Source: a virus | Taxonomy: Duplodnaviria; Caudoviricetes | Length of the DNA: 50,265 nucleotides | Reading direction: 5' to 3' (one strand) | IMG/VR virus record: IMGVR_UViG_3300031673_000073 | Coordinates: 1-50,265 of that record | In this document: one piece after another, positions 1 through 50,265 of the stretch | Numbering within the stretch: position 1 is the first letter of the stretch | How the letters are laid out: each line of letters begins with the position of its first letter | The notes under the pieces: generated by a model | What the model was told of the DNA's origin: nothing | Databases searched by the model: none | The model's input: the letters and a program-made list of their open reading frames with translations, nothing else | Program-made: the position numbers and the translations under genes

Positions 1-254
1 CTGGTGTCTGGTCTGTCATTATGATTCTCCTTTGAGTTCGTGCTTTAGACATTCTCCACCACTTTGTTGACAAATGTTTTCATCAAAGTGAGTACAGGTA
101 AAACAAGTCATGCCCTCTGCCTTCCCTGACACCTCCGTGGTGTCTATGCGGTCTATGATTGCCCTTACCTTTTCGGGCTTCCACGTGAAGATAGTTCCCT
201 CTTCAGTCATAGTGTGCATTAGATTATATAACTCGCTTATTGCCTCTTCCTTGC
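1..254. repeat. Terminal direct repeat, left copy (circular/permuted genome overlap)
   Basis: 1-254 matches 50012-50265 except T127 vs C50138; ORF 19..273 is duplicated as 50030..50265. Confidence 0.95.
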
Positions 255-273
255 TCAACGTCTTGTCCGTCAT
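19..273 (-). CDS. Small accessory protein; MTDKTLSKE start module, C-terminal Cys cluster, ends KGES
   Basis: ORF track; shares its N-terminus with 46411..46680 and the IIDRI motif with other array genes; CFTCTHF...C...C motif. Confidence 0.75.
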   Translation of the reverse strand: MTDKTLSKEEAISELYNLMHTMTEEGTIFTWKPEKVRAIIDRIDTTEVSGKAEGMTCFTCTHFDENICQQSGGECLKHELKGES

Positions 274-7119: not shown

Positions 7120-7195
7120 TTAGAATGTTTAGAATATTTAGAAAGTCCATTCTGAACATTCTGAGCATTCTGAGCATTCTGAACATTCTGAACAT
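7120..7195. repeat. Array of 9-bp repeats in two orientations upstream of the RHH gene
   Basis: TTAGAATGT/TTAGAATAT/TTAGAAAGT at 7120-7146, then CATTCTGA(A/G) x5 at 7148-7192. Confidence 0.9.
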
Positions 7196-7857: not shown

Positions 7858-7916
7858 AATATACCATAAACTAGGAGGCGTGTCAAGTCTTTTTTTACTT
7901 TTTTTTACTTTTTTTT
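7858..7916 (-). promoter_or_regulatory. sigma70-type promoter with A-tract UP element
   Basis: TTGACA(7886-7881), 17 nt, TATATT(7863-7858); three phased A7-8 tracts upstream. Confidence 0.9.
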
Positions 7917-12698: not shown

Positions 12699-14036
12699 TT
12701 ATTTCTTACGACGTTTGCTTTTAACAACCAAACGCCCATCTGGGGTGTACTTAGGCTCGGCCGGCTCTTTTCGCTTGTTTTTGGGGCTACCTGACACTTT
12801 TTTCGCACCTTCTAACAGACCCTTGTCGCTGGTTTCTAACTTATCGCACTTGAGGACTGTCGATGGTGTCATTTCAACCAATAGCGCAGCCTCCGCCTTA
12901 AACTTTGCAGCGTTTTTATCATTGAGATTTTCTAGAGTTTTACGCCACATCATGTCATATGTGCTAGCAAGTAATTGAAGTTCGGGTACTAAGTCCTGTG
13001 AATATTTTTGAAACAGTTTTATAAACTTCGGAGTATCACTAAAATCTCTCCCTGATCCTTCTTTGTAATGCCATACCTTTTTACCCTCGGCGTCTTTGAC
13101 TTGAACCGGGCCACGGCGTTCTACGACGTGTCCTATGAACGCTTTAATATCAGCTTGACGGATCTGTAGGAGTTTTATTGTTTTTGAAATCTTGTTGTAT
13201 TCATCATGGGCGCTTTGAGGATTTTTTATGTTCTCATTATTGATCACAAACCTACGCTTATACTCCTTACAACTTCCGTGGCGCGGGCAATTATGGCAAT
13301 ACTGATTTACTCTCTCTGGGAACAAACCCGCACGGATCCCGGCAACTACGCTATCAATATAATCCTTGATATACATAACGTCGTCGACGTTTATATCGAC
13401 ACTCTTGAACTTTCCTGTTCTAAAATAATATTCAGATAATCGTATTCGTTTAATCGGCTTTCCTGTTCCCCGAAGCATTTCAAGTTCACCCCATCCATAT
13501 GTATTTAACTGTGGTGATTCCCTCAGTTCATCTTTGGTTTTGATCCATCTGGAGTTCTTGAGGTCGATTATCCAAATACCATCATCCCCCAGCGTTAGAG
13601 CAATATCTGGGATCATTTTCAAATATAGATCTTTGTCATATTGAATCAACGCATCACTTTCAACTGATATTATAGATTGAGCATGTTGGGATATATTCCA
13701 TGCGTATGTTTTTAAAGAAGATATCCCGGCTTGAATATCATGAGGCTTTACACGCGCGGGCCCGTGCTCCTCTATAACACGCTTACCATTAAGTGCGTTT
13801 AAATACGCAGTACGACAATCGATCTCTATCTCAAGATCTTGATCACGCATCAGCTTTATACCTATTTCCTCGGCGGCTATATGAAGAACCGTTCCTAATA
13901 ATGCGTCATATCCTTTTTCGTCCTTCAGATTTTTGTAATATAGCCACCAATATAATTTAGGACACGTAGTATAGATATCGCATTGTGAAGCACTAACCCA
14001 TTTTTTAGGCATTTCCAATATAGATTTATTTACCAT
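12699..14036 (-). CDS. PD-(D/E)XK exonuclease (RecB/AddB/Cas4-like, Cys staple)
   Basis: SASQ...CP, GTVLH, PD...IIDLK, QL..Y, YCHNCP....C. Confidence 0.85.
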   Translation of the reverse strand: MVNKSILEMPKKWVSASQCDIYTTCPKLYWWLYYKNLKDEKGYDALLGTVLHIAAEEIGIKLMRDQDLEIEIDCRTAYLNALNGKRVIEEHGPARVKPHDIQAGISSLKTYAWNISQHAQSIISVESDALIQYDKDLYLKMIPDIALTLGDDGIWIIDLKNSRWIKTKDELRESPQLNTYGWGELEMLRGTGKPIKRIRLSEYYFRTGKFKSVDINVDDVMYIKDYIDSVVAGIRAGLFPERVNQYCHNCPRHGSCKEYKRRFVINNENIKNPQSAHDEYNKISKTIKLLQIRQADIKAFIGHVVERRGPVQVKDAEGKKVWHYKEGSGRDFSDTPKFIKLFQKYSQDLVPELQLLASTYDMMWRKTLENLNDKNAAKFKAEAALLVEMTPSTVLKCDKLETSDKGLLEGAKKVSGSPKNKRKEPAEPKYTPDGRLVVKSKRRKK

Positions 14037-15504: not shown

Positions 15505-15561
15505 AATATACAACGTCAAGAATACAATGTCAAGTCTTTTTTTACTTTTTTTTACTTTTTT
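15505..15561 (-). promoter_or_regulatory. sigma70-type promoter with A-tract UP element
   Basis: TTGACA(15533-15528), 17 nt, TATATT(15510-15505); 34 nt identical to 7881-7914. Confidence 0.9.
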
Positions 15562-31629: not shown

Positions 31630-33432
31630 TCAGTCAACCAAGATATATGTGAAACTTCCATCACATGATACCGCTCCGCTCAACTCCATATTCAATAAAG
31701 TATTCGTTCCGGTTTCAAACCATCCTAGCGGATTGTAAGGTAGAACGAATCCCTCGTTTGCTATGAGTTCCATCTGACCTGTCAATGCAGTTCCCCCTGC
31801 TCCGCTCTCGAACCTAACAGTTACCGCGCCAGCAGCGACCATGAATAATGATAGCACTCTGATCTTTTTCCCGGCAACAGCAGTCTTTAATGTATTATCA
31901 CCCGCTCCTGCATAATCTATGATCGCTCTCGCTGAAGCAATAACAGTAGTTCCCTGCATCAATCCGTCCGTACTAACCAGCGCGGCAACGGCATCAGTTG
32001 TAGCGGCCAATGCCGGGCTTGATTCTACATCTACCTGTACTGCCCCGCCAGCATCCACTTTAACGGTTTGTATATTACCACCGGTAGTTCCGGAAATAAG
32101 AATCGGATCGCCAGCCGTTCCAATTGCCGCACCGTCCGCACCGGAACCCTGAACAATTGCGGCATCAGATCCCGTTGCATTATCTATTATAGTAGTAACC
32201 GGAGCTTGATCACTCGCTATCACTACTGGCAAAGATGCTGCCGATGCAGCTGCACCCTGGGAAGGTATCTTTGTGTCAAGCGATGTTGTGTCACCTGCTA
32301 TCACTCCCGTATCTGTATCTATTGTCGCAAGAGTTGCTTGAGTAGCAAGAGCGACACCACCATCCCCCGATACTTCGAGATCACCCGTTCCGGAAAGGCT
32401 TGACATATTAGTTCCATCAGTCAACCGGACAAGAATTCCATCATATACTGCGCCATTATCTATCATCATGCTTTCAGATCCATCGGTGAGACCAACGGAT
32501 TGTCCCGCTGCTATACTGACAGCTTCCGTGAATCCAATATCACCATCAATTGTTAAACTATTCCCTCCATCCTGAATATTAACAGCGGATCCCGCCCCGG
32601 CATTATTGATAGTTACATCTCCGATATCAGTTCCGCTAACAAGCTTCCCATCTATACTTGATAAACTTCCATTACCAGTCGTTTGATTAGCTGATGTAGC
32701 TGCACCAGTAGGTAGAGATACAGTTCCGGAAACATTCGTTATGTTCCATGTTCCACTTTGAGTTGCAGCGACCGATCCATCAACTGTAAGCGATCCTCCG
32801 TTATCGTCAACGCTGAGCAACCCTGTTGAATCAGTTGGCAACGTAACCAATATTGCAGATGCTTCCAATCCTCCGCCGACTGATATCTTTCCATCAATCG
32901 AAGTCGTATCTCCCGATATTACTCCAAGAGCTGTATTTGTAACTGTAACACCTGCATCGATCGCATCTAGGGAAGCGTTCCCAACTGTAACGCCAGCATC
33001 GATCGCATTCAATGATGTGTTAGACACTGTAACTCCTGCGTCAATAGCATCAAGAGAAGTATTTGCGATAACCTGATTAGCAGATGTTGCTGTTATAGTG
33101 TTGAGTTGAGCAGATATAACTCCTAACCATCCGTTGCCAGTATTCGATCTCCAATCAAGTTGAGCCAGAGTTTCTTGTTCTGCCGGATTGATAGTATTAC
33201 CTAGTGCATCAAGTATATATGATGCAGTTGGTAATGTATTACCTCCAGCCGAAATTATAAGATATCCTTCGTCGGTCATGCGCTGATTTCGCATTTCACC
33301 GCTGGCATTTATGCCTCCGTTACCAACATTGCGATTTGCGTCTCTCTTTAATATTTCCTCGGTCGCCTGTAAACCATTAGTCGTAAACAAGACCAGGCCG
33401 GCGACCAACACGCCTATAATTAATTTTCTCAT
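31630..33432 (-). CDS. Exported fiber-like G/T/A/S/D-rich protein with 14-aa repeats
   Basis: Signal MRKLIIGVLVAGLVLFTTNGLQA|T; N(T/A)SL(D/N)AIDAGVTV x3; globular C-terminal domain. Confidence 0.75.
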   Translation of the reverse strand: MRKLIIGVLVAGLVLFTTNGLQATEEILKRDANRNVGNGGINASGEMRNQRMTDEGYLIISAGGNTLPTASYILDALGNTINPAEQETLAQLDWRSNTGNGWLGVISAQLNTITATSANQVIANTSLDAIDAGVTVSNTSLNAIDAGVTVGNASLDAIDAGVTVTNTALGVISGDTTSIDGKISVGGGLEASAILVTLPTDSTGLLSVDDNGGSLTVDGSVAATQSGTWNITNVSGTVSLPTGAATSANQTTGNGSLSSIDGKLVSGTDIGDVTINNAGAGSAVNIQDGGNSLTIDGDIGFTEAVSIAAGQSVGLTDGSESMMIDNGAVYDGILVRLTDGTNMSSLSGTGDLEVSGDGGVALATQATLATIDTDTGVIAGDTTSLDTKIPSQGAAASAASLPVVIASDQAPVTTIIDNATGSDAAIVQGSGADGAAIGTAGDPILISGTTGGNIQTVKVDAGGAVQVDVESSPALAATTDAVAALVSTDGLMQGTTVIASARAIIDYAGAGDNTLKTAVAGKKIRVLSLFMVAAGAVTVRFESGAGGTALTGQMELIANEGFVLPYNPLGWFETGTNTLLNMELSGAVSCDGSFTYILVD

Positions 33433-43253: not shown

Positions 43254-44125
43254 AACTCCCCCGGCTTTAACTCTACCGTCGTCGTCCTACCACCTGATAA
43301 TCTCCGCCCCCCGCGCGCGCGTATGCGTCCGCTACCCGCTTCTACCTTATCACCACCATCCGTGTCTTTAACATCCCCCCGAGCAATCGCTATTGGATCG
43401 CCTTTTCGCCCCTCGCCACTACCTAACACCCCCTGCGATTCTGCCGTATTATCAAGAAACGCCGGGCGCGTATATCTCGGGGTTCTACCTTCTGCTATCG
43501 CTTCCGCTATATCCCCAGGTAATGCGTCATCATCTAGCCCCGTGATCGCCGGCCTACTGCTATAACTATCCTCTGATAAATCTATACCCCTTATCGGTAT
43601 CGCTCCCCTTGGTTCTGAATCAGGCGTCGGCGCCTCCCATGCCATCAACATCATCTCCGTCCGCTGTGTCGCCTCGCCCCTTAACAACGCCAGCGCCTCC
43701 AGTATCACCGTCTTAGCCTTCAATAATCCCTCAAGGCTCTTCGGCTTCACTTGATGCTTGATTTTATCGATCAAATTAAGATCTTCTTCCAAACTTTGGA
43801 TCTTGCGAATTTTCCAGTCTGCCACGCCGGGTGCTAGCTTAGCCCCGACAAGGCTTGCGGTTTCGGATTCAAGATCAAGCCATCCGTCTTTGCTTCTCCA
43901 GTTTAGAATAGTGTTTCTTGATTTATTAAATTTTGCGGCGAGCTTTGTTGACGACGTACATAGTCCCGAAATAAAAAGAAGCGCTGCTTCAATGCGCATC
44001 TCCGAATTCTTCCCTACTATCCGTCTTCTCAGTAACGTTCTTTGTGCCTCTGAAGCACCAACTATTTCTTTAGCACTTGGCGGTTCAATTAACTTTCCGC
44101 TTGGCGTATACTGCTTTTTGTCCAT
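43250..44125 (-). CDS. terS: Terminase small subunit (HTH)
   Basis: STKLAAKFNKSRNTILNWRSKDGW HTH followed by a coiled coil; first gene after a terminator, upstream of terL. Confidence 0.75.
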   Translation of the reverse strand: MDKKQYTPSGKLIEPPSAKEIVGASEAQRTLLRRRIVGKNSEMRIEAALLFISGLCTSSTKLAAKFNKSRNTILNWRSKDGWLDLESETASLVGAKLAPGVADWKIRKIQSLEEDLNLIDKIKHQVKPKSLEGLLKAKTVILEALALLRGEATQRTEMMLMAWEAPTPDSEPRGAIPIRGIDLSEDSYSSRPAITGLDDDALPGDIAEAIAEGRTPRYTRPAFLDNTAESQGVLGSGEGRKGDPIAIARGDVKDTDGGDKVEAGSGRIRARGGRRLSGGRTTTVELKPGEL

Positions 44126-44234
44126 CGTTCCTCCTGGTTGCTATAATGTATAGTATCAATGGTCTGTTGTAAAGCATTAATTTCGTTTTATTTTACTTAT
44201 TTTACATTGCCTATTTCTCCTTATTTTTGCATAT

Positions 44235-44263
44235 AAAAAGGCCCGTAGCTTTCACTACAGGCC
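44235..44263 (-). terminator. Intrinsic terminator ending the accessory-gene transcript
   Basis: GGCCTGTAG-TGAAAG-CTACGGGCC-TTTTT on the minus strand. Confidence 0.85.
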
Positions 44264-44340
44264 CTTTGTTCTTATCTGGTGTTATCTTACTGTGTCTTAT
44301 AGCTTTCTCTCTCTCGGATTCCTCTTCGCTTCCCTGCTAC

Positions 44341-44505
44341 CTAGCTTATAGCACGCTCTATCTTTTGTGCTAGCTCGTTCATGTTACCGGATAGCTTCAC
44401 GCCTTCCTGTACTACTCCTTCCGTATTCCCGGCTTTAATGTTTATCTGCATTGTCACCGTCCGCTCTTCCATCACCTTTAGTAACGCTATCATGTCCTCG
44501 TGCAT
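44341..44505 (-). CDS. Small hypothetical protein, 54 aa, not in the ORF track (MHEDMIALLK...)
   Basis: GGGAG RBS before ATG 44505; open to TAG 44341. Confidence 0.55.
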   Translation of the reverse strand: MHEDMIALLKVMEERTVTMQINIKAGNTEGVVQEGVKLSGNMNELAQKIERAIS

Positions 44506-44671
44506 TAACTACTCCCTGATGTTTAACGCTTACCTAATAACCACCTGATGCATCCCGCCGCCCACTTACACGCTGTAACGATATGGTCTATCGTCTTGTC
44601 CCACTCCTGCATTAGAAGATCCTGTAGCTCGCGTACTGCTTCACGGATATATTACCTCTTTGGGTTCTAGA

Positions 44672-45187
44672 TCAATTGGCTCGTCGCTGGGCCCGTCCAC
44701 CGGATCCCCTCCCGCGCTTGTTCTTGCTTACGCTGACATAATTAGCTACAGCCCGCAATGCCTTCCACGCCTCCGCATCATCCTCCCTGATATGGTAGAC
44801 GTTGTCCCATATGGTTACGGCTCGTGTCTTCGTCTCTTCCCTTGGTTCCTCTGGCATGTTATCGCCTCCTTTTTCTTCCTCGGTTTTATCCTTAGTCATA
44901 TCTACTAGATCCCCGCTCGTAGGTATCTCGCCTATAGGGATATATTCGTTACTATATTCCTCGGCGCCTTGCATAAACGTATCACGGCATCTTCTTATCC
45001 GTAGAGTATTTATCGCCTCGCAGATCCGGCCGATACTCTCCTGGTATATATCCGCTATAGTATCCATCGAGTTCCCGTGCTTAAAGGGCCCCGTCTCGGC
45101 CTCGCGCATTTGCTCGGCGGTTCTTCTCGCGTCATCTCTACAACTAACTAATCCCGTTACTAATTCTCTTAATGGGCTATCGTTCAT
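44672..45187 (-). CDS. Hypothetical protein
   Basis: ORF track; internal AGGAGG-ATG (MPEEP) suggests a fusion. Confidence 0.55.
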   Translation of the reverse strand: MNDSPLRELVTGLVSCRDDARRTAEQMREAETGPFKHGNSMDTIADIYQESIGRICEAINTLRIRRCRDTFMQGAEEYSNEYIPIGEIPTSGDLVDMTKDKTEEEKGGDNMPEEPREETKTRAVTIWDNVYHIREDDAEAWKALRAVANYVSVSKNKRGRGSGGRAQRRAN

Positions 45188-45668
45188 TACTCATCCTCCT
45201 CGCTAGATCTATTGCTCGCTCAAGAGCGTCACCACATTTTAACCATTCTATAGCGGCGTTACGTTTACCGACCTTCTTAATCATTAAACAGTCCTCTATC
45301 TTATCTGCTGGAACCAACCATCTGCACTCTGCCGGTCTATCTTTAAGCTCTAGCTCGCAACCTTCATCGGTTAGGAAGGTACACTCGCCTCCCCATCCTG
45401 CGTAACGTAGTTTATCTATAAATCCCTTTATCGCTGGCCTTAAGAAGTATGCTATCTGTCCAGGTTCTAGCTTTCCATCTGTCGGATCGCCTTCCCACCA
45501 ATCTACAATCCACCTGCCAGTAATCAGTTTATTAGCTATAGTTCGTGGATGTGCTCCGTAGTCCTGGGGTAATGCTACTCCTGGATTACGCTTACAACAG
45601 ATACCGCCACACGCCGTACATAGTTCCCGATCTTCTACTCCAAGCTTCAAATCAATTTCGCTATTCAT
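45177..45668 (-). CDS. YkgJ/CxxCxxCC-type cysteine-cluster protein
   Basis: CTACGGICC, CTFL...GC.L....RP.EC. Confidence 0.85.
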   Translation of the reverse strand: MNSEIDLKLGVEDRELCTACGGICCKRNPGVALPQDYGAHPRTIANKLITGRWIVDWWEGDPTDGKLEPGQIAYFLRPAIKGFIDKLRYAGWGGECTFLTDEGCELELKDRPAECRWLVPADKIEDCLMIKKVGKRNAAIEWLKCGDALERAIDLARRMSNER

Positions 45669-45688
45669 TACCCCTCCTTTGTCGTCCC

Positions 45689-46015
45689 TTACTTTTTTAT
45701 GGCTTCCTTAAATGCAGTTACGATTAACATATCTACCGCGCGTAATACCTCGGGCCCGTTGATACATAGTATATGAGCTAAAGTATCATCTTCATCTCCT
45801 TGGCCTCCTGATTTTTCACAGGTCATGCTCACTGCTCCCGTTGACAATATCTCTATTTCAAACTTCATGCCGGCATGTAAAAGCCCCCTTGCCATGTTTT
45901 CTACTTCGGCGGATCTGTCTATCACGATCTCCATCGTTTTTCCATCAGGTAATAGATATTGAGTGAATGGGATCGATCTTAATGTACTATCTTTGAATCC
46001 GTGTATTTCATCCAT
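45689..46015 (-). CDS. Hypothetical protein
   Basis: ORF track; IPFTQYLLPDG. Confidence 0.65.
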   Translation of the reverse strand: MDEIHGFKDSTLRSIPFTQYLLPDGKTMEIVIDRSAEVENMARGLLHAGMKFEIEILSTGAVSMTCEKSGGQGDEDDTLAHILCINGPEVLRAVDMLIVTAFKEAIKK

Positions 46016-46017
46016 TA

Positions 46018-46329
46018 CTACCTTCCTTCCTTGAGTGCTTTGAGGACATGATTGATACCTTCTTTAAATCGTCCATCTTTCCTCTTGACCTCAATTAATC
46101 CAGTTCCATCACAAAATATACACCCATCAGCTACACCATAACCACATTTATGCTTCACGGTTTTATAATCCCTTAAACGCTCCACCTTCTTGATTATCTC
46201 GGAGTTGTCGGGTTCTCCCGTGCGGGTGTTCCAAAACTTAATTGCGCCTTCGCCATCTTCCCCCCAATATTTCCAATCGGTATTCATGCCACATATTTTA
46301 CATGACACTTTGTTATTGCCGTCCATCAT
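46018..46329 (-). CDS. Lar-like (restriction alleviation) Zn protein fused to the PDNSEIIKKV module; 5' end appears decayed
   Basis: VSCKICG...AIKFWNTR; the frame continues upstream as EKLKPCNCG without an ATG. Confidence 0.6.
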   Translation of the reverse strand: MMDGNNKVSCKICGMNTDWKYWGEDGEGAIKFWNTRTGEPDNSEIIKKVERLRDYKTVKHKCGYGVADGCIFCDGTGLIEVKRKDGRFKEGINHVLKALKEGR

Positions 46330-46410
46330 ATCTATGGTTAAATCATCTCTGCTAGCTCCACAATTACACGGCTTTAGCTTCTCTATCTGAGATCTTATGA
46401 AATTTCTCGA

Positions 46411-46680
46411 TCACTCTTTTTCTCCTTCGAGTATTTTCCGGATATCCTTCTCGAAATCTCTGTGTTCGGATTCCTTCAATCGTCCGATGAGTCTTACATC
46501 TGTTGCTATTCGCCCCATCACCTTCTTGATTATCTCGCCGTTATCGGGCTGTGTGCGGTCTATGATACCACCTAGCTTATCCCTCATCTCCTGCCACACC
46601 TCCCTTGCGTGTTCGTTCTCCGGCTCGCTTCCGTATATCAGGTCTAGTGCATCTTCCTTGCTCAATGTCTTGTCTGTCAT
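46411..46680 (-). CDS. Mosaic accessory protein (MTDKTLSKEDALD...PDNGEIIKKV plus unique tail)
   Basis: First ~54 aa nearly identical to 47833..48105. Confidence 0.75.
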   Translation of the reverse strand: MTDKTLSKEDALDLIYGSEPENEHAREVWQEMRDKLGGIIDRTQPDNGEIIKKVMGRIATDVRLIGRLKESEHRDFEKDIRKILEGEKE

Positions 46681-46685
46681 GGCTT
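46519..46685. repeat. Dispersed repeat copy A (copy B at 47947-48110)
   Basis: Manual alignment: 9 mismatches plus one 3-nt indel over ~165 nt. Confidence 0.9.
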
Positions 46686-46892
46686 ACTCTCCTTTTCCTT
46701 TTCAATAGTGTTTTTCAATGCTTCTTTAGCTGCCTTAAAATAATAGTCATAATGACTTTCCAAATCGTCCACGTGTCGTTGTTCGGAGAAGCTATATTTT
46801 TTTCCATTCACTCTAACCTCAAAAAACAATTCTTTCAAGCTATCCCCATAGAAAGATGGTCTAATTTCAAACAAAAAATATTCAATCTTCAT
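46677..46892 (-). CDS. Hypothetical protein ending KESKP
   Basis: AAGGAGG RBS; ATGA overlap. Confidence 0.65.
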   Translation of the reverse strand: MKIEYFLFEIRPSFYGDSLKELFFEVRVNGKKYSFSEQRHVDDLESHYDYYFKAAKEALKNTIEKEKESKP

Positions 46893-46917
46893 CACTCCAC
46901 CTCCTTTGTTTTAGCTG

Positions 46918-47310
46918 TCATGGCTTCTCCTTTGGTGGTGTTATGCCCGAACTTTGATACATGACCGCTAACCGCCCAGACATCCAGCCTTCCCAACCGT
47001 ATTTCTTTGCCTTCTCTAAAAGCTCGAATGTATCTTTAATATCACGGTCGCAAGACTCAAAACCTCGCAACCAAACTTCTGCTTCTCTCTTTGCCTGTTC
47101 AATGGTTTCGGTATAACCCCAAGAAGGACACCCAACATGACCATCGTTATAACGTATCTGCCACATCCACTTAACTGCTTTTTTCTTCTCGTCCACTGTA
47201 TTAAATTGTTCTTCGAGTACGGCACATAAATTACGAACTGGCCCATACTCCCACGGATAAGCGTTTTTGTGCCTTGGCTTTTTCCATTTAAGCTTCTCTA
47301 TCTCTGGCAT
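46918..47310 (-). CDS. Hypothetical protein (MPEIEKL start, ends KEKP)
   Basis: Flanked by connector sequences. Confidence 0.7.
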   Translation of the reverse strand: MPEIEKLKWKKPRHKNAYPWEYGPVRNLCAVLEEQFNTVDEKKKAVKWMWQIRYNDGHVGCPSWGYTETIEQAKREAEVWLRGFESCDRDIKDTFELLEKAKKYGWEGWMSGRLAVMYQSSGITPPKEKP

Positions 47311-47615
47311 TATGATTCTCCTTTCTTGTTTCTCTTATCGCACTCTGCTTGTGCTTGTTTCTTGGTTGGGAACATATCATCCTTCGGCAATGAAGTCCCA
47401 TGACTTGCTCGATATTCTGTCCAATGTTGTGCGTTTGTATTTTTCTCTTTACGCCAATTAGCAGAAATCCCACATATTATAAAAGAATCGTCTATCTCCC
47501 ATACCAATTTATCTACTTTCAATTCGATACCACATGAATCACATTTTTTATATTTAACAGACTCACGTATCAACCATACCTTATCCCCTATATCAAACTT
47601 GGTCTTGATGTTCAT
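47310..47615 (-). CDS. Hypothetical protein (MNIKTKFDIGDKVW, ends KGES)
   Basis: Start revised to the ATG of the AAAGGAGAATCATAATG connector. Confidence 0.75.
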   Translation of the reverse strand: MNIKTKFDIGDKVWLIRESVKYKKCDSCGIELKVDKLVWEIDDSFIICGISANWRKEKNTNAQHWTEYRASHGTSLPKDDMFPTKKQAQAECDKRNKKGES

Positions 47616-47833
47616 TATGATTCTCCTTTGGTTATCCAATTCCACGCTTTTATTGCTTGAGATTTACCTTTGTGGGTAATGTTGGGATATGCAAACCCTA
47701 TTCTTCCGCAGAGTTTACAATATGCCCACGACCATTTCTTCCCGTCATCTGTTGTAAATACATATTCATTGGTACTACATTTCGGGCAACAAAAAGGATT
47801 ATGTTTCGCAAAGCACGTTGGACACGTTTCCAT
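47615..47833 (-). CDS. Lar-like Zn-finger protein (ends KGES)
   Basis: CPKC...CKLCG...AIKAWN; start revised to the connector ATG. Confidence 0.65.
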   Translation of the reverse strand: METCPTCFAKHNPFCCPKCSTNEYVFTTDDGKKWSWAYCKLCGRIGFAYPNITHKGKSQAIKAWNWITKGES

Positions 47834-48246
47834 TATGATTCTCCTTTGAGGATTGAGAGGATTTTGTTCGCCTTTGCGTCCATTAGTACAACGTACTTTG
47901 CGTCTGTGAACTTCATGTTTTTTATCAAGTCGCACAACTCCGACTCCACCTTCTTGATTATCTCGGAGTTGTCGGGCTGTATGTGGTCTATGATACCACC
48001 TAGCTTATTCCTCATCTCCTGCCATGCCTCCCTTGCGTGTTCGTTCTCTGGCTCGCTTCCGTATATCAGGTCTAGTGCATCTTCCTTGCTCAACTTGTCT
48101 GTCATGGCTTCTCCTGTGTTAGTGCGGTCTAGATTGCCTTTTGCTAGTTCTCTAAACTTTACTAACGCTTTCTCCATATCTTCAGGAGTTAGTTTTATGC
48201 CTAGCTCTTCGAGTTTCTTTCTTATCTCTTCTTGTTTGTCTGTCAT
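47833..48246 (-). CDS. In-frame fusion of two MTDK-start modules (internal start 48105), ends KGES
   Basis: Internal GGAGAAGCCATGACAGACAAG connector read as GEAMTDK. Confidence 0.75.
   Translation of the reverse strand: MTDKQEEIRKKLEELGIKLTPEDMEKALVKFRELAKGNLDRTNTGEAMTDKLSKEDALDLIYGSEPENEHAREAWQEMRNKLGGIIDHIQPDNSEIIKKVESELCDLIKNMKFTDAKYVVLMDAKANKILSILKGES
47947..48110. repeat. Dispersed repeat copy B
   Basis: See copy A; 47944-47976 is also identical (33 nt) to 46180-46212. Confidence 0.9.
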
Positions 48247-48602
48247 GGCTTCTCCTTTGGATTTTCTTGTGCCACTCCCGTTACGCCAAGTGCCTCACCG
48301 AGTTTAGTTAAGGCAATACCCCATTCATCAGATGATGGTCTTCCTTTGTCGGTGACGTTAATATCTCGGTCGTGCAGATAATAAAGTTCCCGTGATGCTT
48401 TTTCTATCTCGCTGTTGTCGGGCTGTATGCGGTCTATGATACGCTGAAAATCCTTCACTACCATGCTTGATAAATCATCCTTTGGGTGTGTGACGAAGCA
48501 GGCGGGGTCTTGGTAATACGCCCGTATTTCGCTCGCTAACTGTTTTGCGCTCCTGTCGTTGTCGTACTTTGTTTGTTCTTCCTTCGTTAGCTTCTCCGGC
48601 AT
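48243..48602 (-). CDS. Mosaic accessory protein (MPEKL start, IIDRIQPDNSEI module, ends KEKP)
   Basis: Flanked by connectors; shared internal module. Confidence 0.75.
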   Translation of the reverse strand: MPEKLTKEEQTKYDNDRSAKQLASEIRAYYQDPACFVTHPKDDLSSMVVKDFQRIIDRIQPDNSEIEKASRELYYLHDRDINVTDKGRPSSDEWGIALTKLGEALGVTGVAQENPKEKP

Positions 48603-48853
48603 TATGATTCTCCTTTAGTTAGTTCTCGTATCATTAACAGTCTGATAATAGCGTGGTCGATGCTAGGTCGTCCGCTGTCTGGGTCTATATGTCCTCCTAT
48701 TGAGTTCCATCTATCGAAATGCCCGTGAAACTTTGTGTAATGAACACTCAAGTCTTTCTCCCGCCACCCATTGTCGCCGTGCTTGCCCTTACCTTCTTGT
48801 ATGAGTAGGTCGTCTAGTCCTTGAAGGTTAAAGAACTTTGTTAGTAGTTTCAT
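48602..48853 (-). CDS. DUF5664-like dATP/dGTP diphosphohydrolase domain protein (ends KGES)
   Basis: G..KHG..GW......Y......H...W......DPDSG...I.HA; start revised to MKLLTK (ATGA overlap). Confidence 0.65.
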   Translation of the reverse strand: MKLLTKFFNLQGLDDLLIQEGKGKHGDNGWREKDLSVHYTKFHGHFDRWNSIGGHIDPDSGRPSIDHAIIRLLMIRELTKGES

Positions 48854-49992
48854 GTTAAACCTCCTAACCTTTTGAACGCTTCCCTCGCACACTGCGGAAC
48901 CACGCTGTTGCCAAGGCATTTAAGGCGGTCGTTTCTAAAGGGTAGCCCATTAACCACTCTACCCACGTTGGGTTCAGTTGGCCAGTAATCCCCTCCATCG
49001 CGTTCACCTTGTCCGGCAAGCTGTTGTTCTCGTTCCTCCCTGCCGCTTCTAGAGTTTCTTGATTTCTGCCGCCTTTGTAATCCCTTGCCGCCGGGGTTGG
49101 ATATGTCTGTTTGTGTATCACTTCTGGTAGCCCTTGTTGATTGCTGTTCGGTCCGCGGCGTTTGTAATCCTGTTTCGTTGGTGTCGGCCACATCTGTGTT
49201 TTCCCTTCCACCAATTCCGCCAGCCCCCTTCCGTATCCTACCGTTGTCCTTCCCGGCTCTTGGCTTCTTGGTGTTGGCCACATCTGCACCGCTTGACTTA
49301 GATTTACACTGTGCATTGACCCTTCTTTCTGCTGGCTCGACTTCAGTTTGTCTGTGAAGGTGTCTGCTGTTGTTGGTGTCGGCCATGTCTTTGGTGTTTT
49401 GACTTGCGCACTTAAACTCCCCGCACACTTGTCCGTCCTGTTGCCCATTCTTTTCACGAAGTTGTCCGTGTTTTCTCCTGTTTCCGTTGCTCTTGGAGTG
49501 AGCCAGCAACCACCACCTTTCTCGTCTGTGCGGCGCTCCCATGTCGAAAGCTGATAGCAAGCCCCATCTACAATCATACCGTAACTCGGCCAACACTCCG
49601 GTAACTTCAGCAAGTCCTCGAAAAGTGATAGCTGGCACATTTTCCAAGAAGATGAACTCTGGTCGTAGTTCGCTAGACAACCTAACGATTTCGCCAAATA
49701 GTCCACTTCGCTTTCCCGCCAAGCCCGCTCCACTTCCCGCAATACTAATGTCTTGACAGGGGAAGCCACCGCTGATGATGTCGATTTCTGGGAGGTCTTT
49801 TCCTTTGAGTGTGGTAACGTCATCCCAGATAGGGGCGTTGTCAATCTCACCTCTTGACATTCTTGAAAGTAAGACGGCTTGAGCGTATCGCTCGTTTTCA
49901 CAATAGGCGACTGTGCCGACCCATGGCGAAAGGGCTTCGCTGATTCCTCCAATTCCGCTAAATAAATCCAAACCATTTAACTTCTCCTTCAT
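48850..49992 (-). CDS. C5 cytosine DNA methyltransferase, alpha frame (motifs I-VIII and X)
   Basis: DLFSGIGG, DV, GGFPCQD, ENV, HRRER, RLKCLGNSVVP. Confidence 0.93.
   Translation of the reverse strand: MKEKLNGLDLFSGIGGISEALSPWVGTVAYCENERYAQAVLLSRMSRGEIDNAPIWDDVTTLKGKDLPEIDIISGGFPCQDISIAGSGAGLAGKRSGLFGEIVRLSSELRPEFIFLENVPAITFRGLAEVTGVLAELRYDCRWGLLSAFDMGAPHRRERWWLLAHSKSNGNRRKHGQLREKNGQQDGQVCGEFKCASQNTKDMADTNNSRHLHRQTEVEPAERRVNAQCKSKSSGADVANTKKPRAGKDNGRIRKGAGGIGGRENTDVADTNETGLQTPRTEQQSTRATRSDTQTDISNPGGKGLQRRQKSRNSRSGREEREQQLAGQGERDGGDYWPTEPNVGRVVNGLPFRNDRLKCLGNSVVPQCAREAFKRLGGLT
48864..49976 (-). CDS. Nested +1-frame ORF; beta-like methyltransferase subunit with WPTP repeats and motif IX
   Basis: 370 open codons; AAGGAG 7 nt upstream of the ATG; five (W/Y)(P/L)TP repeats; LNPTWVEWLMGYP. 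Confidence 0.8.
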   Translation of the reverse strand: MVWIYLAELEESAKPFRHGSAQSPIVKTSDTLKPSYFQECQEVRLTTPLSGMTLPHSKEKTSQKSTSSAVASPVKTLVLREVERAWRESEVDYLAKSLGCLANYDQSSSSWKMCQLSLFEDLLKLPECWPSYGMIVDGACYQLSTWERRTDEKGGGCWLTPRATETGENTDNFVKRMGNRTDKCAGSLSAQVKTPKTWPTPTTADTFTDKLKSSQQKEGSMHSVNLSQAVQMWPTPRSQEPGRTTVGYGRGLAELVEGKTQMWPTPTKQDYKRRGPNSNQQGLPEVIHKQTYPTPAARDYKGGRNQETLEAAGRNENNSLPDKVNAMEGITGQLNPTWVEWLMGYPLETTALNALATAWFRSVRGKRSKG

Positions 49993-50011
49993 TTAATAAC
50001 CTGCCGTTCCT

Positions 50012-50265
50012 CTGGTGTCTGGTCTGTCATTATGATTCTCCTTTGAGTTCGTGCTTTAGACATTCTCCACCACTTTGTTGACAAATGTTTTCATCAAAGT
50101 GAGTACAGGTAAAACAAGTCATGCCCTCTGCCTTCCCCGACACCTCCGTGGTGTCTATGCGGTCTATGATTGCCCTTACCTTTTCGGGCTTCCACGTGAA
50201 GATAGTTCCCTCTTCAGTCATAGTGTGCATTAGATTATATAACTCGCTTATTGCCTCTTCCTTGC
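50012..50265. repeat. Terminal direct repeat, right copy
   Basis: 253/254 identical to 1-254. Confidence 0.95.

Follow-up and report, generated by a model that had tools for sequence, protein, structure and literature searches.

Diversity-generating retroelements and invertase shufflons place variable C-terminal parts on a constant protein body. In T4-type phages, small ORFs are described as being reshuffled by recombination between short repeated cassettes (PeSLs), each consisting of an intergenic promoter and terminator stem-loops (PMC2839356). The account of temperate phages attributes their mosaic genomes to homology-driven exchange that tolerates divergence (PMC3945230), and in the CDI/Rhs polymorphic toxins orphan C-terminal modules are reported to join at the VENN-encoding sequence (PMC3150448). 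Here we describe a soil phage in which tiny genes share exact in-frame blocks, probably because recent duplicates were reshuffled by ordinary phage recombination.

The window, that is, the whole stretch of DNA analysed (50,265 nt), is an entire siphovirus-like record of ~50,011 bp in which positions 1-254 repeat 50012-50265 with one mismatch (position 127). The region of interest, from which the terminase genes lie a few kb downstream, is best explained as part of an accessory gene block between the DNA-methylase and packaging genes, organised as a single minus-strand operon. Promoter-like sites (8 vs 9.5 expected) and terminator-like sites (5 vs 5.2 expected) were not in excess, and Rfam gave 0 matches, consistent with a single translationally coupled operon. 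In G001, the nearest phage (TerL 68%), neither the genes of this region nor comparable repeats were found, indicating that the region is hypervariable. The neighbouring Dcm gene contains a conserved second reading frame.

The 137-aa ORF (47833..48246; on the minus strand, like the five ORFs described next) consists of N1 (residues 1-47; 48246..48106), the M1b domain (48105..47947) and the tail T1 (47943..47833), and it has an internal Shine-Dalgarno sequence and ATG at 48105. The 89-aa ORF (46411..46680) carries a second copy of the domain, M1a (46680..46519), followed by an unrelated tail, T2 (46518..46414); T1 and T2 gave no BLASTP match. The 84-aa ORF gA (19..273) has a diverged M1-like N-domain and a Cys-rich tail. 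Because positions 1-254 repeat 50012-50265, gA is the same gene as 50030..50263 and therefore adjoins the region on a circular or terminally redundant map. The IIDRI and MTDKTLSKE blocks had been seen to recur in this gene, and both are present, ATCATAGACCGCATA at 145-159 and the start block at 227-280 (83% identity over 54 nt to 46634-46687 by self-BLAST). The likeness is not a mere two-patch match, however, as the first 54 residues of gA are homologous to M1 throughout, with 36% identity in an alignment of 56 columns (within-genome E 3e-5). The 119-aa ORF (48243..48602) contains the IIDRIQPDNSEI block at 48405-48442. Its N-terminus, MPEKLTKEE, looks like MTDKLSKED by eye with different codons, and the gene may be a fourth member of the M1 family.

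Two further ORFs have a zinc-ribbon-like CxxC...CxxC pattern like that of the Lar family (PF14354, TIGR03655, phrog_599). The first (72 aa; 47615..47833) lies between the two M1 genes and scored 17.9 bits against PF14354 and E 0.0049 against phrog_599. The second (46018..46410) follows the TGA of the 89-aa gene in that gene's frame; its Lar-like domain is succeeded by an exact copy of a 33-nt block (46180-46212) and by T3, a tail rich in Cys. This ORF matched PF14354 over residues 11-64 (20.7 bits), TIGR03655 over residues 12-64 (18.5) and phrog_599 (E 8e-6). The curated cut-offs are 28.6 bits for PF14354 and 39.6 for TIGR03655; since all these matches fall below them, "Lar-like" denotes resemblance only. 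The domain of the second ORF is without a canonical start because its match begins before the first ATG (46329). The best explanation for this gene is that it gained an 11-codon M1 piece plus a third tail.

The M1 genes probably represent a lineage-specific family of small helical proteins in which a ~55-residue M1 N-domain is followed by unrelated C-terminal tails (T1, T2 and the Cys-rich tail of gA). The tails and neighbours matched no family in Pfam, PHROGs or NCBIfam, and the M1 genes themselves had no NCBIfam match. A PDB profile search gave a best E of 0.13, and the top ESM Atlas scores (0.86-0.87) were below the 0.9 bar. Modelling weakly suggests that the 137-aa protein is all helical; its AlphaFold model had a mean pLDDT of 47.9 and was unusable. 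A DUF1380 identity (ESM Atlas 0.80-0.86) was rejected, as Pfam gave it no support. Since the neighbours of the M1 genes are two DNA methylases and the two Lar-like ORFs, our guess is that the family comprises host-takeover or anti-restriction accessory proteins.

All blocks listed in the sequence-only reading were recovered at their positions. The long M1 repeat pair (47947-48110 vs 46519-46685) is real, with 92.8% identity over 167 aligned columns including a 3-nt indel (self-BLAST, E 1e-56) and 94% over the 147 nt of the ungapped part. Similarity between M1a and M1b runs from 5 nt before the ATG and ends abruptly after the IIKKV codons, as had been proposed; beyond them the alignment drops to random level. 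The 33-nt block at 47944-47976, which codes for PDNSEIIKKVE on the minus strand in the 137-aa gene, is identical to 46180-46212 (33/33 nt), and the third repeat, at 48405-48442, matches both 46531-46568 and 47959-47996 (each 92% over 38 nt). All block copies are direct, on the minus (gene) strand and in one shared reading frame. With up to 2 mismatches ATCATAGACCGCATA had 5 matches, which reduce to 4 loci when the redundancy of the window ends is taken into account, compared to a shuffle mean of 0.10 (0/100 shuffles reached 5); CCCGACAACTCCGAGATA with up to 3 mismatches had 4, compared to a mean of 0.05 (0/100 reached 4). The 15 nt of ATCATAGACCGCATA are identical in gA and the 119-aa gene, synonymous sites included, though these genes are otherwise far apart. 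Elsewhere in the genome, self-BLAST found just two unrelated pairs of long repeats. M1a and M1b differ by 9 substitutions and one codon indel (dS 0.105, dN 0.048, dN/dS ~0.46), indicating a young duplication or conversion. Their longest exact run in the genome is 44 nt, or 56 nt with the 3-nt indel taken out.

The genes are linked by two kinds of near-identical translational-coupling (ribosome-site/start) cassettes, each present at 5 sites. In the class A junction cassette (AAAGGAGAATCATAATG; 47831..47852, minus strand), a gene stop overlaps the start of the next gene; further copies are at 47308-47329, 47613-47634, 48600-48621 and 50028-50049 (= 17-38). The class B start cassette (GGAGAAGCC ATGACAGAC...) is at 48091..48110 (minus strand), within the 137-aa ORF, and again at 259-278, 46666-46685, 46907-46926 and 48232-48251. 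Two minus-strand mini-ORFs are read as start-cassette stubs: the 9-codon MTAKTKEVE (46892..46921), behind a class B cassette, and the 13-codon MTDQTPEERQVIK (49989..50030), between gA and the Dcm gene. In front of the second Lar-like ORF lies a decayed class A cassette with an IEKLK start block (46373..46400, minus strand); it shares 79% identity with the beginning of the 130-aa gene (47288-47315) and has AAG at the ATG position. The 20-nt class B cassette was found at 6 loci in metagenome_contigs, none otherwise like the window. Two of these are in a bacterial flavoprotein gene, and L090 and L092 are unrelated small phage-like genes that likewise begin with this ribosome-site/MTDK element and finish in ...KEKP.

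Relatives were limited to two, P0001 and P0002, in ~15 billion proteins. P0001 (97% identity to the 137-aa protein), from an independent assembly, has the same in-frame N1-M1-T1 order. In protein-level comparison, N1 and T1 are retained in P0002 (66%), which also keeps the in-frame fusion, around an unrelated middle of equal length. Near-identical flanks round an unrelated segment are the expected trace of a homologous-recombination mosaic allele. The expectation that relatives would hold other N/C combinations was thus borne out once, by P0002; as there are two relatives, the table of combinations reaches just three rows. Contigs from two other soil runs, X2 and X3, point the same way; their stretches without cover were left out of the evidence. 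One contig in each run recodes the N1 end to the P0002 form (48116, 48119, 48132, 48136, 48143), one in each recodes D to S at 47879-80, as in P0002, and X3 record 22 matches 48080-48257 and continues with 136 letters unlike the window, the distance to 47944. Together, P0002 and these contigs indicate that module exchange does occur. In a single X2 contig of depth 4.07, whose shorter side has 24 letters, 46414 is linked to 46896 through an intervening GATTCTCCT. In run X1, depths of 19.7 over 44000-46209 and ~13 beyond, together with a 6.4-depth contig with a 20-letter side, hint at a second strain; these depths do not rank the explanations.

Other searches, in collections that may omit the window's own or near-identical records, returned no relatives from the phages database (blastn), 0 confirmed of 8 pattern matches in viral_contigs with the 89-aa protein and 0 confirmed of 253 in metagenome_contigs with the 137-aa protein. 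Degenerate patterns for PDNSEIIKKVE, MTDKxLSKE and the 27-nt core each gave 0 matches in viral_contigs, and a homologous-protein search with the second Lar-like ORF and the 119-aa ORF returned the window's own proteins alone. The match to P0004, a giant adhesin-like protein of 6831 aa (29 stretches), was rejected as chance similarity inflated by repeats.

We consider it reasonably probable that the blocks arose by duplication and by ectopic or inter-phage recombination at identities of 15-56 nt, filtered by selection. Tandem duplication would have come first, followed by homologous recombination, whether unequal or ectopic, or by template switching, both inside the genome and among co-infecting relatives, with a few recent events leaving the blocks as footprints. 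Selection may then have retained only in-frame, foldable hybrids, which would explain why the borders coincide where a predicted helix begins. Such events could have produced the tail swaps, the middle swap, the in-frame N1-M1b fusion, the stub mini-ORFs and the start-less Lar-like gene. The phage has a PD-(D/E)XK nuclease (12699..14036) and "exonuclease" PHROG matches; no single-strand annealing protein (Rad52-like, RecT or Erf) was recognised, and several replication-region proteins match nothing. On this reading the locus shows ordinary phage mosaicism, with no new diversification machine or mechanism, and the block pattern is best explained with nothing programmed. As a counterpoint, random illegitimate joins would not be expected to give borders this regular. 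In three independent comparisons (the 89-aa with the 137-aa gene, the 137-aa with the Lar-like gene, and P0002 with the 137-aa gene), similarity ends no more than one codon from KKV(E), in agreement with the proposed crossover at a common motif. The claim that the proteins are combinatorial mosaics accordingly stands for these sharp in-frame borders; it fails where the sharing is plain homology, gA being a diverged paralog.

The strongest rival, though on balance unlikely, is plain paralog divergence, in which the blocks are the best-conserved motifs of one family, the M1a/M1b duplication is the sole recent event, and sub-gene recombination is not required. The alignment of gA with M1 across its N-half, the differing codons in the M1-like N-terminus of the 119-aa gene and the M1a/M1b dN/dS all fit it. 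So does codon usage among the copies: the serine of PDNSE is TCC in two copies and AGC in the third, which points to selection acting on the peptide and not simply to a recent origin, and another copy has glycine (GGC). Against it, the 33/33-nt block of the Lar-like gene is flanked 5' by the Lar-like domain and 3' by an unrelated tail, and therefore at least this gene is a chimera. The M1a/M1b likeness also stops within one codon, with T1 and T2 giving no BLASTP match, and P0002 is a clean middle replacement.

A less probable elaboration, which we would give only a slim chance, is that the IIDRIQPDNSEIIKKVE-coding block acts as a VENN-like in-frame linker. Ordinary recombination in a phage population would then reload a constant N-domain with tails kept elsewhere in the operon, an example being the Cys-rich tail now behind the Lar-like ORF, and so produce a polymorphic group of small proteins for host takeover or anti-defence; the start cassettes would act alike for whole genes. 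No tail-loaded variant was seen.

The sequence-only reading had gone further and proposed a recombination-based diversification system, with neither reverse transcriptase nor invertase. In such a dedicated system, tails would be exchanged at high rate by recombination at the in-frame block, a reading we regard as very unlikely. The coincidence of three borders at KKV(E) and the position of T3, which is preceded by the exact block and sits downstream like a stored cassette, speak for it, as does a 12-bp hairpin across the block/T1 junction (dG -25.2, z -3.9, 0/200 shuffles as good). The hairpin was not found in the other three block copies, however, and 3/4 copies fold no better than shuffles. 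The absence of a reverse transcriptase or invertase was correct: none was found among 85 proteins (17 + 51 + 17) scanned with PHROGs or 42 scanned with Pfam, and the same scans gave no integrase, resolvase or named recombinase. Since the repeats are all direct, recombination between copies would delete DNA rather than switch it; the 8 inverted pairs in 44000-50265 are weak (12-19 nt, 78-92% complementary), and all of them lie away from the block borders. Adenine bias is absent between M1a and M1b, with 4/9 substitutions at an A of one copy and the others T/C, C/T, G/T and G/C. No joint of 1428 or 1764 nt was among the 9 listed, which says little because runs X1-X3 consist of contigs, from which rare recombinants would drop out, and unitigs break inside repeats; ongoing recombination, not seen in them, could thus escape notice. 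The closest phage is also without these genes. On these grounds we do not uphold the proposal of a dedicated system.

More improbable still is that the block serves at the nucleic-acid level, for instance in protein binding, in packaging or as an RNA motif, and lies in coding DNA by chance. Identity at synonymous sites across 15-33 nt in four genes and the proximity of the terminase genes would suit such an element. Yet 4/4 loci share strand and frame, coverage is staggered (the left part alone in gA, the right part alone in the Lar-like gene), Rfam gave no match, the folding of three of the four copies is no better than that of shuffles, and viral_contigs held no copy. Least credible of all is an artefact in which a metagenome assembler collapsed or wrongly chained strains and so made the repeats: X1 Logan unitigs (records 1-5) do stop inside repeats and X1 has a second variant contig of lower depth, but unitigs necessarily break at exact repeats of at least 31 nt, the unique segments between repeats are each present once at similar contig depth (11-13), X2 record 13 (46636-47097) and X3 record 20 (46502-46917) match with 0 differences, and P0001, from another assembly, joins M1b to N1 and T1 exactly like the window, fixing the pairing at both ambiguous nodes.

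Duplication followed by ordinary recombination can be set against the described systems. Diversity-generating retroelements differ in that the locus has no reverse transcriptase and no adenine-specific template/variable pair, and shufflons differ in that it has no invertase and no inverted repeats at borders. The Lar family differs in that, at this locus, an M1 block and a Cys-rich tail are fused to one Lar-like ORF, whose domain has no start codon. As in the CDI/Rhs toxins (PMC3150448), a short conserved in-frame motif divides a constant N-part from variable tails, and a motif-preceded tail lies downstream, so that recombination at the motif would load it by deletion. The proteins here are 84-137 aa, in contrast to the described toxins, with no toxin/immunity pair and no large secreted N-part. 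The common borders point to domain limits in proteins outside known families, which would be useful should these be tested as anti-restriction or host-takeover factors.

The replaced segment of P0002 between near-identical flanks resembles the products of relaxed, Rad52-like homologous recombination (PMC3945230). The scale differs, being 130-170 nt within a gene here and gene blocks in the account of temperate phages, and the phage has no recognisable Rad52-like, RecT or Erf protein. The locus is also similar to the PeSL regions of T4-type phages, where short repeats border small non-essential ORFs in a variable region (PMC2839356). The insertions, deletions, replacements and small circles described for PeSLs would likewise be expected from direct repeats lying 1428 nt apart, as here. 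The repeats themselves are different: they are ribosome-site/start cassettes and coding blocks that lie in frame, promoters and terminators are not in excess, and the repeated translational-coupling cassettes constitute ready-made microhomology. Compared to PeSL shuffling as described, exchange in this phage extends inside genes, and the locus provides a compact case, with breakpoints placed to the nucleotide, of mosaicism below gene level through 130-170-nt modules, an in-frame fusion and stubs of 9-13 codons.

The mosaic genes sit in an accessory block flanked by the packaging genes and the C5 methylase gene (48850..49992). Comparing the unique genome with itself by BLAST revealed seven repeat pairs, five of which lie within this block. 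The segment 47947-48110 matches 46519-46685 at 92.8% over 167 columns (E 1e-56), 46634-46687 matches 227-280 at 83% over 54, and 47944-47976 is identical to 46180-46212 (33/33). A further segment, 48405-48442, matches both 46531-46568 and 47959-47996 at 92% over 38. Two motifs were counted against shuffled sequence: the first had 5 matches (shuffle mean 0.10) and the second 4 (shuffle mean 0.05), counts reached by 0/100 shuffles in each case. Every block copy is a direct repeat on the coding strand, and all share one reading frame. Self-BLAST, the motif counts and the frame check thus confirmed the coordinates and peptides of the sequence-only reading. At the nucleotide level, four or five copies tile a core of ~50 nt in a staggered way: gA (gene 19..273) covers its left 15 nt, the 119-aa gene its left and middle, the Lar-like ORF its middle and right, and M1a and M1b, the two copies of the shared N-domain M1, the entire core.

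M1 is a 53-54-residue N-domain encoded by both long copies. The 89-aa gene (46411..46680) joins M1a to a downstream tail, T2; in the 137-aa gene (47833..48246), an N-part of 47 residues, N1, precedes M1b and the tail T1. The two M1 copies can be aligned at the nucleotide level from position -5 relative to the ATG up to the IIKKV codons, beyond which similarity ceases. They are separated by 9 substitutions and a single codon indel (dS 0.105, dN 0.048), suggesting no hypermutation between them, on few sites and with little power. N1 continues without a frame break into a full Shine-Dalgarno/ATG cassette, whose ATG is at 48105. The fused N1-M1b frame is retained in the related database protein P0001 (97% identity) and is the same in a second one, P0002 (66%); the fusion is therefore real. 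With its internal start, the 137-aa gene could encode two products. A 12-bp hairpin spans the block/T1 junction of this gene (within 47930-48000, minus strand), where the 33-nt block's first half pairs with the opening codons of T1 (dG -25.2 kcal/mol, z -3.9; 0/200 shuffles as stable); the other three block copies lack it and fold like shuffles. Over 54-56 residues, gA shows homology to M1 (36% identity; within-genome E 3e-5). The patches that it was said to share with M1 are therefore present, but as the best-kept parts of a diverged paralog rather than as shuffled pieces. By BLASTP, the 119-aa gene has only a 12-14-residue block in common with the family; its N-terminus is M1-like by eye, with other codons used. 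In the Lar-like ORF (46018..46410), the 33-nt exact block follows a zinc-ribbon-like part and precedes a Cys-rich tail, and every family match of this ORF falls below curated cut-offs.

Two repeated cassettes serve gene starts in the accessory block. The class A cassette (AAAGGAGAATCATA-ATG, stop/start overlap TAATG) is found at five starts (47308-47329, 47613-47634, 47831-47852, 48600-48621 and 50028-50049). The class B cassette (GGAGAAGCC-ATGACAGAC, stop/start overlap ATGA) also serves five (259-278, 46666-46685, 46907-46926, 48091-48110 and 48232-48251), one of them inside the 137-aa ORF. Because of these overlaps, many block proteins end in KGES or KEKP. A further class of stop/start coupling cassette was noted at 752-771, 1027-1046 and 1637-1656, giving three classes in all, each of near-identical copies, and hence the recurring C-terminal ends KGES, KEKP and KGAK on unrelated proteins. 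The 20-nt ribosome-site/MTDK start also occurs at two metagenome contig loci (L090 and L092), in unrelated small phage-like genes whose upstream proteins end in ...LKEKP, so the cassette type may be convergent or widespread. Two mini-ORFs, 50030..49989 (13 codons) and 46921..46892 (9 codons), are start cassettes with almost nothing behind them, and we read both as putative deletion scars. A decayed class A cassette, with AAG at the ATG position within an AGATCT site, precedes the Lar-like ORF. The Lar-like match starts 16-17 residues ahead of the first ATG, no ATG, GTG or TTG was found before its domain (46330-46413), and the ORF follows the 89-aa gene's TGA in the same frame. Judged from its sequence, this ORF (Lar-like ORF 2) may be a decaying gene or may be expressed by readthrough/reinitiation or from an unusual start. 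Promoter- and terminator-like sites showed no excess in the region and Rfam gave no match, which fits one translationally coupled operon.

The phage is a siphovirus-like tailed phage. PHROG matches comprise a tape-measure protein, major head protein, protease, portal, large terminase, connector proteins and two DNA methylases; almost all genes of the window are on the minus strand, and the runs holding its sequence are soil metagenomes. The whole virus record is 50,265 bases long. In self-comparison and self-BLAST, 1-254 repeats 50012-50265 over 254 nt with one mismatch (T/C at 127/50138), giving a genome of ~50,011 bp that is circular or terminally redundant; IMG/VR classes the record, with its 254-nt terminal redundancy, as linear. 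gA is the same gene as 50030..50263+ and lies, on a circular map, just upstream of the C5 methylase gene. Elsewhere in the genome, 8230-8991 and 9271-10533 are neighbouring paralogous ORFs (24% identical across 252 residues; within-genome E 4e-20), the former matching an 'exonuclease' PHROG. The 34-nt sequence at 7881-7914 recurs exactly, in direct orientation, at 15528-15561; it is rich in T on the plus strand and ends in TTGACA on the gene strand, and may thus represent a repeated promoter region. Tandem repeats are located at 7148-7195 (9 nt, 4-5 copies) and 32941-33066 (42 nt, 3 copies, 74% identity), the latter inside a 600-aa structural ORF.

The M1 family is nearly unique. Among 5.8 billion clusters, a word-indexed search returned just P0001, P0002 and the 89-aa protein of the window itself. 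No relative was added by an exhaustive HMMER pass through 1.84 billion representatives, whose single extra match was spurious, driven by repeats. No relatives were found for the Lar-like ORF or the 119-aa ORF, and scans of viral and metagenome contigs, in collections that may leave out near-identical records, yielded nothing related. The nearest phage, G001, has structural genes and the methylase in common with the window (TerL 68% identical) and none of these small genes, no comparable repeats and no repeated cassettes. The accessory block is therefore hypervariable and lineage-specific. A different combination, of the kind that the proposal of mosaic proteins called for among relatives, was found in P0002, which has N1 and T1 as in the window and an unrelated middle of the same length between ...LSKE and ...KVE. 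P0002-matching DNA letters are present in contigs of two soil runs, X2 and X3, whose studies differ from that of soil run X1. In those contigs, five changes at 48116-48143 turn the N1 end into the P0002 form, and a change at 47879-80 replaces D with S in T1. A contig of soil run X3 (record 22) fits 48080-48257 and has, on one side or the other, 136 unlike letters, the exact distance to the block end at 47944. This pattern is the signature of replacement via exchange in flanking homology.

A lead separate from the mosaic finding concerns the C5 methylase gene (minus strand). A second frame at +1, frame B (48864..49976), is open for 370 codons and matches phrog_1008 (E 6e-29), with no match in Pfam or NCBIfam. 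Both frames are open in G001 too, and conservation against G001 is better for the methylase frame, frame A, in the first third and for frame B in the middle. The frame-B query returned at least 589 relatives in viral_contigs, and its match lay inside a frame-A methylase ORF in 79/80 kept loci (L095-L174, including L097). Where the A ORF was complete, B was at +1 in 67/67 loci, its median longest open stretch was 289 codons versus 56 in the third frame, and it was open over at least 60% of A in 65/67 loci (third frame, 0/67), an openness that is partly by choice since frame B was the route by which the loci were collected. This choice does not explain why B is never found by itself. Frame B could be an overprinted gene, or the methylase could be read in two frames. 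Among the full-text matches listed there was no paper on this second frame, which does not prove that none exists.

For how and when the observed blocks, borders, cassettes and one swapped allele arose, and for the role of selection, we infer the following. A small family was probably formed by duplication, followed by non-allelic recombination or template switching and selection of in-frame products. Tandem duplication would expand a small gene family, and microhomology would be provided by the start cassettes, the exact run at the M1 start (44 nt as in the genome, 56 nt after indel removal) and the 15-33-nt core. Host or phage recombination, or replicative template switching, would occasionally link non-allelic copies, whether these reside in one genome or in two co-infecting relatives. 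In-frame, still-folding products would be kept by selection, placing the borders at a structural seam; a low-confidence model hints that the block may begin a helix. Against this explanation, the regularity of the KKV(E) border, the 15-nt synonymous-site identity between otherwise distant genes, and the serine codons (TCC in two copies, AGC in a third) leave room for a peptide motif under selection, which we consider unlikely, or for a VENN-like linker, which seems more doubtful still. That the repeats are assembly chimeras is very improbable, as P0001, from another assembly, has N1-M1b and M1b-T1 joins identical to those of the window, fixing the pairing at both ambiguous graph nodes, and contigs of soil runs X2 (record 13, 46636-47097) and X3 (record 20, 46502-46917) show 0 differences from the window. 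Logan unitigs of X1 stop within the repeats, as k=31 graphs must, and each unique segment is present once in the X1 contigs, at similar depth. Contig depth in X1 is 19.7 for 44000-46209 and 11-13 beyond, and one contig of depth 6.4 shows a gap of 4 nt at 47321 and joins 47359 to 50024 (side 20); at contig level, these hint weakly at a second strain with other gene content upstream of 46209.

The sequence-only reading had proposed a recombination-based diversification system with no reverse transcriptase or invertase. Neither enzyme was found, nor an integrase or recognisable annealing recombinase, among 85 proteins compared with PHROGs and 42 with Pfam; PD-(D/E)XK nuclease and 'exonuclease' families are present in the phage. 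The dedicated system was not supported, given direct repeats, no recognised recombinase and no joint of the expected lengths among those listed. Because the repeats are direct, exchange would delete 1428 or 1764 nt, or make a circle, rather than switch; a skip of either length was seen in 0/9 listed joints, in contigs that would hide rare forms. Inverted repeats in the region are weak and away from the block borders. A lone X2 contig with just 24 letters on one side is a weak candidate for another joint: it runs from 46414 to 46896, missing out two genes, with 9 letters of a class A cassette in between. The defining features of DGRs and shufflons were tested for and not found.

Together, these results suggest that duplication with non-allelic recombination represents known phage mosaicism via recombination among paralogs, here at sub-gene scale. 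Close precedents are the hyperplastic regions of T4-type phages, with recombination between short repeated cassettes (PMC2839356), and homology-driven mosaic formation that tolerates divergence (PMC3945230). The VENN-bordered orphan tails of CDI/Rhs toxins (PMC3150448) are a precedent by analogy only.
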